Assembly: GCF_013315695.1 (NCBI RefSeq)
Contig: NZ_CP054353.1
Direction: 5' to 3' (one strand)
Origin: Escherichia coli
GTDB lineage: Bacteria > Pseudomonadota > Gammaproteobacteria > Enterobacterales > Enterobacteriaceae
Length of the DNA: 64,000 bases
Shown here: piece after piece, positions 28,538 through 28,735 of the stretch
Position numbering within the stretch: the first letter of the stretch is position 1
Layout of the letters: the number at the start of each line of letters is the position of its first letter
The notes under the pieces: generated by a model
Database searches by the model: none
What the model saw: only the letters and a program-made list of their open reading frames with translations
Told to the model about the DNA's origin: nothing
Position numbers and translations under genes: made by a program

Positions 28538-28735
28538 AGGGCGCGCATATTAACTTTGTAACGTCATAGAGTCAAAGAAAAAGGCAGCCTGTGGTTGCCT
28601 TTTGCCAATAATTCGCACACATTGCGGGTTACTGCTTTATTTTCGTTCAGTGCTGATAACGAACATCAATCTGCAAAACGAAGCGCATAGTTTAAAATGG
28701 CTATCATCAATACGCTATATCTGATGGAAAAAAAT

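Follow-up and report, generated by a model that had tools for sequence, protein, structure and literature searches.

In the divergent oxyS-oxyR pair, the gene opposite the small RNA (sRNA) encodes the sRNA's regulator. SroG, at the ribB FMN riboswitch, was an sRNA that proved to be the terminated 5′ leader of the gene downstream. A different comparison is offered by the RNAs that associate with ProQ. The FinO domain of this RNA chaperone requires a terminator stem and at least four 3′ U residues, and in ProQ-specific RNAs an A-rich motif located 5′ of the terminator pairs with the tail and disfavors Hfq (PMC7367173). The cspE 3′ UTR, the malM 3′ UTR, and SibB belong to the ProQ class and, like SraB, have a terminator hairpin, at least four U residues, and an A run that pairs with the tail (PMC7367173, PMC5393179). 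Of the ProQ ligands studied in depth, most are 3′ UTRs of mRNAs or antitoxins encoded in cis-antisense, and their partners are known; SraB, in contrast, stands by itself between genes, and no partner is known for it.

Coimmunoprecipitation with ProQ enriches SraB strongly, placing it among the most enriched RNAs; the 169-nt SraB of Escherichia coli K-12 forms a 1:1 complex with ProQ, its binding is also reported from HDX, SAXS, and NTD gel shift, and it is recognized by the isolated FinO domain (PMC5393179). The linker and C-terminal domain of ProQ are also contacted (PMC5393179), which sets SraB apart from most well-studied ProQ ligands. SraB was first seen in late stationary phase (PMC7967276) and has been observed as a discrete small transcript in K-12 and Salmonella by northern blotting, in vitro transcription, and RNA-seq. 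In Salmonella, ppGpp represses it more than 4-fold, and in E. coli it is induced 5.1-fold when replication has been inhibited. The literature searched reports no SraB target or molecular function, and the sole phenotype that we found in it, egg-albumen survival of S. Enteritidis, is cited there second-hand.

sraB in the yceD-yceF spacer

The yceD-yceF spacer of the window (the 64-kb stretch of E. coli DNA analyzed here) contains sraB, a small noncoding RNA gene that is already annotated in E. coli K-12 and is not new. A cmscan search matched the Rfam SraB model (RF00077) over its whole length (model positions 1 to 169 of 169) at 28742..28574 on the minus strand, with a score of 208.9 bits (E = 1.1e-43); the gathering score of the model is 130 bits. 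In the curated K-12 record (NC_000913.3), the ncRNA sraB (b4418) occupies 1146589..1146757 between yceF and yceD, in the same orientation as yceD, with yceF on the opposite strand. The window and K-12 sequences align one to one and gap free over 28742..28574 of the minus strand, with 167 of 169 bases identical. The two substitutions, A for G at 28670 and C for T at 28661, fall in the bulge and the loop, respectively, of the SL2 hairpin, and both are outside the terminator. The window therefore shares locus, strand, neighbors, and terminator with SraB of K-12 (b4418; RF00077; also pke20) and differs from it by two SL2 substitutions; it is the same gene and not a variant kind.

A first-pass annotation of the DNA had delimited a 198-bp spacer (28538..28735), had expected SraB within it in the orientation of yceD, and had named alignment to the annotated sraB coordinates as the check. 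The spacer is as described: yceD begins with an ATG at 28537 (minus strand), and yceF with an ATG at 28736 (plus strand). The expected location is borne out by the full-length RF00077 match and by the K-12 annotation with its identical synteny, the orientation is agreed on by the K-12 record, the Rfam match, and the alignment, and the proposed check gave the gap-free correspondence reported above. Confinement of SraB to the spacer did not hold, since the annotated RNA overlaps the first 7 nt of yceF.

We put at about 0.9 the probability of the joint reading that the spacer carries a minus-strand sraB gene, pointing to yceD and away from yceF, whose product is probably a 109-nt ProQ-associated RNA. 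The more-than-chance status of the region rests on the full-length Rfam match and on compensatory changes in the terminator and SL2, not on folding energy. The whole 169 nt was no more stable than shuffled sequences on either strand (z = −0.71 for the minus strand and −1.34 for the plus strand), and folding energy was dropped as evidence for SraB because these z-scores were unremarkable. The features of the locus are collected in Table 1.

Table 1. Features at the yceD-sraB-yceF locus, in window coordinates
Feature	Position	Strand	Basis or remark
sraB as annotated, 169 nt	28574..28742	−	Rfam RF00077 and K-12 b4418 alignment
Probable main primary transcript, short form, 109 nt: SL2, SL3, and terminator	28574..28682	−	Published TSS, folding, conservation
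Putative −10 box TAAACT of the short-form promoter	28689..28694	−	Conservation; 7 nt upstream of published TSS
Annotated 5′ extension, long form only	28683..28742	−	Antisense to yceF 5′ UTR and first 7 coding nt
−10-like TAAAAT for the annotated long-form start, within the yceF coding sequence	28748..28753	−	Read from sequence
Putative −10-like TAAAAT for yceF	28693..28698	+	Read from sequence; overlaps SraB −10 by 2 bp, opposite strand
SL2, 5′-terminal hairpin of the short form, clade specific	28642..28682	−	Alignment, covariation
SL3; inner part CCGCAAUGUGUGCGAAU at 28611..28627	28608..28632	−	Near-invariant inner part across genera
Linker in SraB: AAAAUAAAG			
Intrinsic terminator hairpin with 5′ A run: AAAAGGCAACC ACA GGCUGCCUUUU; U-tail on to 28574	28579..28603	−	Folding and 78-sequence alignment
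yceD promoter-like site: TTGACT, 17 nt, TAATAT, GCGCGCCCT, yceD ATG	28547..28575	−	Only promoter-scan pass
yceD (context gene, downstream of SraB)	28016..28537	−	173-aa ORF; RefSeq, 100% identity
yceF (context gene, divergent from SraB)	28736..29320	+	ORF; RefSeq 7-methyl-GTP pyrophosphatase

The yceF-sraB-yceD locus is present in 5,424 of 5,426 complete E. coli genomes, and the yceD and yceF flanks annotated in RefSeq genomes are 100% identical over 28450..28850. Because PGAP-annotated genomes omit sraB, only yceF and yceD are shown under the BLAST matches. The RefSeq product of yceD is a 23S rRNA accumulation protein, and the yceF ORF begins MPKLIL. Five records labeled as plasmids bear the chromosomal yceF-sraB-yceD locus, and a genome labeled "Chryseobacterium sp. 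18061" (L057) has an Enterobacteriaceae-type locus; these entries are likely mislabeled or contaminated. Elsewhere in the window, Rfam gathering scores are also exceeded by rne5, the 5′ UTR element of RNase E (30603..30939, plus strand, 260.1 bits), the PyrC leader (53453..53502, plus strand, 68.7 bits), and the ES036/CssrF sRNA (62633..62675, plus strand, 49.9 bits).

Transcript ends and divergent promoters

The evidence for the SraB transcription start site (TSS) comes from one reanalysis paper, which reproducibly places the start 60 nt downstream of the annotated one in several RNA-seq and Cappable-seq data sets, reports that Salmonella SraB uses the equivalent start, and points out that the original SraB northern blot already showed a product of ~105 nt (PMC7967276). 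The same paper terms the promoter of the long form "deceptively attractive" and finds it unused in RNA-seq (PMC7967276). In window coordinates, the published start lies at about 28682 and yields a 109-nt RNA.

For comparison across species, 80 species-level loci were collected via YceD, and an alignment of 78 rows was analyzed. The TAAACT hexamer upstream of the published start is invariant or nearly so in the 78 aligned sequences, which come from about 77 species. The short-form promoter has no recognizable −35 element and does not reach the cutoff of the consensus promoter/terminator scan. Apart from the yceD promoter, that scan picked up just one irrelevant site, on the plus strand; it overlooked the two SraB promoters as well as the SraB terminator. 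In Salmonella and Citrobacter, the TAAAAT that could serve as the long-form −10 box is replaced by AAGGAT or AAGAAT.

Folding separates the two forms in a similar way. The 5′ 60 nt of annotated SraB has no excess structure (z = +0.33), and SL1, the only Rfam helix in this segment, is paired in 42% of cells across species; the conservation of the extension can be attributed to the yceF start codon and the divergent promoters. For the 109-nt form, the minimum free energy (MFE) and centroid structures coincide and comprise three hairpins, the first stem starting at the very 5′ end; the stability is in itself unremarkable (z = −1.79), but all carriers share this architecture. Taken with the published start, these observations suggest that the 109-nt RNA (28682..28574) is most likely the main cellular product and that the annotated 169-nt form, which starts at 28742, makes a minor contribution at most.

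The putative −10 boxes of SraB (TAAACT) and yceF (TAAAAT) face away from each other on the two strands and share 2 bp, together spanning 28689..28698. The plus-strand TAAAAT at 28693..28698 is compatible with the "divergent overlapping promoter yceF P2" described previously (PMC7967276). In its overlapping promoters and weak divergent gene, the SraB/yceF arrangement resembles oxyS-oxyR, a divergent sRNA/gene pair discussed in the same work (PMC7967276); unlike in that pair, the divergent gene here, yceF, encodes a nucleotide pyrophosphatase without a known link to SraB.

On the other side of SraB, the U-tail runs directly into the −35 element, TTGACT, of the predicted yceD promoter, and from the U-tail as far as the yceD ATG nearly all 80 species have the same sequence. 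This predicted promoter is near consensus and has a GC-rich discriminator (GCGCGCC). The yceD start (28535..28575, minus strand) lacks a Shine-Dalgarno sequence, and the ATG follows the −10 element TAATAT by 9 nt; a yceD mRNA made from the predicted promoter would be nearly leaderless because of this short distance. A literature search on leaderless yceD returned nothing relevant. A 7-codon out-of-frame mini-ORF, ATGCGCGCCCTATGCAAAAGGTAA, overlaps the yceD start.

Terminator, SL2, and SL3

SraB ends, on the minus strand, in a terminator hairpin followed by the U-tail UUUUUCUUU. Read on the plus strand, the hairpin is AAAAGGCAGCC-TGT-GGTTGCCTTTT (28579..28603). Across the 78 aligned sequences, 95.5% of the cells of the terminator stem are paired and three pairs show double changes; the U-tail and the A run are invariant. 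With GGCAAAA, a stem, and UUUUUCUUU, SraB has the layout of a ProQ ligand as described in the literature (PMC7367173). The first-pass annotation had described here a hairpin with one G-U pair on the plus strand, flanked by an A tract and a T tract, and had proposed it as a possible 3′ end in either orientation. The hairpin is indeed formed by 28579..28589 pairing with 28593..28603, with G28587-T28595 as the G-U pair, and on the plus strand it is preceded by an A run and followed by TTTT. The layout that suggested use in both directions is thus real; a ProQ-type terminator fits it better than termination in both directions does and accounts for the symmetry of the A and T tracts.

The same annotation had held that the strand could not be fixed from sequence alone, and our strand comparisons agree. 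In a wobble-pair test of the terminator stem, 22 distinct sequences were more stable as sense and 17 as antisense, and the RNAalifold totals were almost equal (−45.6 for sense versus −45.3 for antisense). By itself, the hairpin folds at −15.2 kcal/mol on the plus strand (z = −2.96), beating 200 of 200 shuffles, and at −11.2 kcal/mol on the minus strand (z = −1.63), where 15 of 200 shuffles were as good. The minus-strand hairpin has an A·C mismatch where the plus strand has the G-U pair, which explains why the consensus terminator scan overlooked it. The SL2 consensus fold favors the sense (minus) strand (−18.6 versus −13.6), whereas the terminator consensus in SL2 carriers favors the antisense (plus) strand (−21.4 versus −18.2). 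A count of G·U and A·C combinations on SL2 and SL3 (35 versus 2) was dropped as biased, the structure having been predicted on the sense strand; it was replaced by the two-strand alifold comparison, in which the sense strand is favored only for SL2.

These figures might be taken to mean that the hairpin serves a plus-strand transcript, terminating it or forming its 3′ end, and that any spacer RNA is not SraB sense: the plus-strand stem is perfect bar one G-U pair and surpasses every shuffle, and the better plus-strand fold of the terminator extends to the SL2-carrying species. We find this reading barely credible. Nine pyrimidines, eight of them U, follow the hairpin on the minus strand, compared with four U residues on the plus strand; the plus strand upstream of the hairpin encodes nothing and is only antisense to yceD; in about half of the species the wobble falls on the other strand; and the minus strand is the sense strand in the K-12 annotation, in Rfam, and in every experimental paper. 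The minus strand was accordingly chosen on the basis of the U-tail, the lack of a plus-strand gene upstream, and the experimental literature.

The SL2 hairpin distinguishes one clade. It was found only in Escherichia, Salmonella, Citrobacter, and Intestinirhabdus, and its distribution is that of a clean indel: a segment of ~56 nt (SraB positions ~58 to 113), which spans SL2 together with the 5′ arm of the outer stem of SL3, is absent from 72 other loci of the 78-row alignment, which have the ~50-nt core only. These loci include Kosakonia, Enterobacter, Kluyvera, Leclercia, Raoultella, Cedecea, and the Erwiniaceae outgroup Winslowiella. RF00077 exceeds its gathering score only in E. coli (207.6 bits), E. 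albertii (199.7), Salmonella (193.2), and Citrobacter (158.7); Intestinirhabdus is below threshold at 105.5 bits, as are the insert-less genera scanned, at 34 to 92 bits. The low Rfam scores outside the carriers are explained by the clean SL2 indel.

Within the carriers, SL2 behaves as a structured RNA. A metagenome scan brought the distinct short-form alleles collected from carriers to 14. RNAalifold, applied to 13 sequences (12 alleles plus Intestinirhabdus), recovered SL2, SL3, and the terminator unaided, and all five pairs with compensatory double changes were in SL2. In a divergent allele carried by about 93 E. coli genomes, the SL2 apex UUGAUGUUCGUUAUCAG is changed to CUGGCAACUUUGCCAG; the change is fully compensated, and the hairpin is kept. 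The SL2 segment is single copy, occurring at one place per genome in 5,424 of 5,426 E. coli genomes, and the possibility that it is a mobile or dispersed repeat (REP, ERIC, or MITE) was rejected on that ground. As a positive control, the ERIC-like insert of one Cedecea-like locus (L052) was found at a median of 9 places per E. coli genome.

SL3 presents a different picture. Its inner 4 base pairs are unchanged in 72 to 74 of the 78 sequences, with no real covariation, and its outer stem exists only in SL2 carriers. Among the Rfam helices, covariation thus supports SL2 and the terminator; SL3 is invariant and in this respect uninformative. The lack of covariation means that the SL3 core may be conserved for DNA-level reasons. 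In the 64-kb window, the complement of the invariant SL3 block was found only at the block itself, the number expected by chance being 0.38; a window of this size is too small for SraB target prediction. A small-protein reading of SraB was rejected, as its short ATG ORFs are unconserved and none is present in Citrobacter and Intestinirhabdus.

Several observations concern individual alleles and loci. The SL2 allele of the window is rare: only 18 of 5,424 E. coli genomes match the 63-nt SL2 query at ≥99%. The A at 28670, which is G in K-12 and most genomes, lowers the predicted stability of the short form from about −33 to −29 kcal/mol. In Escherichia sp. MOD1-EC7003 (L003, 1220..1478), SL2 is absent, although the SraB core (100% identity) and YceD (99%) agree with E. 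coli; on the yceF side, the locus looks like that of Pseudocitrobacter (L023 and L025) and not like that of E. coli; a recombinant locus or a misassigned genome is possible. The SraB core of three Cedecea-like genomes (L052, L056, and L060; about 1290..1440) is interrupted, with the SL3 block on one side and the terminator on the other, by 80 to 125 bp of inserted DNA. The 125-bp insert belongs to a dispersed repeat (median, 9 copies per E. coli genome), which fits an ERIC/IRU element. A REP-type match to naRNA4 (RF02564) lies in the yceF-rluC spacer (L002 638..710 and L065 618..700, corresponding to ~29328..29400 of the window); it is above threshold in Citrobacter (60.8 bits) and below it in E. 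coli on both strands (48.7 and 47.4 bits).

Alternative readings and the role of SraB

Like SroG, SraB has a terminator at its end and is followed immediately by an operon in the same orientation. It could therefore be a prematurely terminated product of an upstream yceD promoter, with read-through giving a yceD mRNA with a long 5′ UTR and cis control of yceD-rpmF. SraB does share the orientation of yceD and ends 36 nt before its start codon; two yceD promoters, yceDp1 and yceDp2, are on record, one of which may be the SraB promoter; and the E. coli terminator, with an internal mismatch and moderate stability, is likely to allow some read-through. Unlike the SroG arrangement, however, the locus has an independent, invariant, near-consensus promoter between the SraB terminator and the yceD ATG, so that yceD does not need an upstream start, and neither a ligand-type conserved fold nor a conserved alternative (antiterminator) pairing was visible. 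Only ~25 nt precede the terminator in the insert-less genera, and in both Rfam and the literature SraB counts as an abundant sRNA in its own right. We regard the leader/attenuator reading as secondary and unlikely. Many ProQ ligands are cis-antisense RNAs, and the 169-nt form might likewise act in cis, covering the yceF 5′ UTR and start codon and so blocking translation of the yceF mRNA or destabilizing it. The annotated 5′ end at 28742 is 7 nt inside yceF, the long form would be fully complementary to the yceF leader, and yceF transcription has been reported to be barely detectable where SraB is abundant (PMC7967276). Such control is poorly supported, however, because it needs the long form: the 109-nt RNA has no overlap with a yceF transcript started at the TAAAAT box, Salmonella and Citrobacter lack the long-form −10 box, and no conserved RNA structure is seen in the first 60 nt. 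We consider it quite improbable.

It is also conceivable that the constraint acts mainly on the DNA, the SL3 block and terminator being kept as control DNA of the yceD-rpmF(-plsX-fab) promoter (for example, as a UP-like T tract or an activator site) and as a terminator that insulates it from transcription arising at the divergent promoters; the SraB RNA would then have little or no function. The SL3 core is nearly invariant without compensatory change, whereas the adjacent terminator stem varies freely; the variable positions of the SL3 block are solely A/T swaps; the U-tail adjoins the invariant −35 TTGACT, with identity down to the yceD ATG across about 80 species; the strand asymmetry of the terminator stem is even-handed (22 versus 17); and in most genera the SraB RNA would be only ~50 nt long. 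Centered about 71 bp upstream of the predicted yceD start, GTGCGAATTATTGGC is a candidate Fis-like site in the position that is classic for Fis at rrnB P1. Against a purely DNA-level role stand the RNA-structure selection on SL2 in the E. coli clade (five compensatory pairs and a better minus-strand fold) and the abundance of SraB, its specific ProQ binding, and its response to ppGpp and replication stress. Moreover, three species retain both the SL3 block and the terminator with its adjoining promoter although an ERIC insertion has come between them, which disfavors an activator site with strict spacing. On balance, we think it somewhat unlikely that the DNA-level role is the main one. DNA-level and RNA-level readings of the SraB core are not exclusive and can coexist, and the covariation of SL2 together with ProQ binding speaks for a role of the RNA itself, at least within the E. 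coli clade.

One way of combining the two, which we offer tentatively and hold to be less likely than not, is that SraB is a modular, young RNA on older control DNA. The ~50-nt core, consisting of the invariant SL3 block and the ProQ-type terminator and common to Enterobacteriaceae, would be constrained mainly because it lies upstream of, and insulates, a yceD-rpmF-plsX promoter that is under stringent control and nearly leaderless; the single-copy 56-nt SL2 segment would have been gained in the Escherichia/Salmonella/Citrobacter lineage, would be under selection for RNA structure there, and would form the 5′ half of the 109-nt transcript.

For the sRNA itself, the preferred reading is that of a minus-strand gene with a short product. 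SraB would be transcribed from a start 7 nt after TAAACT and would end at the terminator and U-tail; the terminator, with its A run pairing with the U-tail, would provide a handle for ProQ, whose binding presumably stabilizes the RNA; and SraB may then pair with other transcripts as a ProQ-associated regulatory RNA. With the identity, coordinates, strand, and conserved architecture of SraB and its in vitro binding to ProQ established here or in the literature, the most likely role of SraB is that of a ProQ-stabilized regulatory RNA, the short form as main product and the regulatory step being the conjectural parts.

The case of sraB mainly confirms that a known sRNA gene can be recovered from raw sequence, to which the analysis adds exact ends and strand. 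The added value is modest and lies in the coordinates and strand, in support for a 109-nt gene model, and in the division of the locus into a ~50-nt shared core and a clade-specific structured insertion. Experiments on SraB in vitro have used the 169-nt RNA, although the product in cells is probably 109 nt long and missing the first 60 nt. A search for SraB function would most naturally begin with the clade-specific SL2 and the invariant SL3 block. In Klebsiella, Enterobacter, and related genera, SraB homologues are about half size and fall below the Rfam threshold, so that annotation can miss them. If the modular origin proposed above is true, the 169-nt gene model and the Rfam model would be wrong in the first 60 nt, and the Rfam threshold would leave out the ancestral short homologues.
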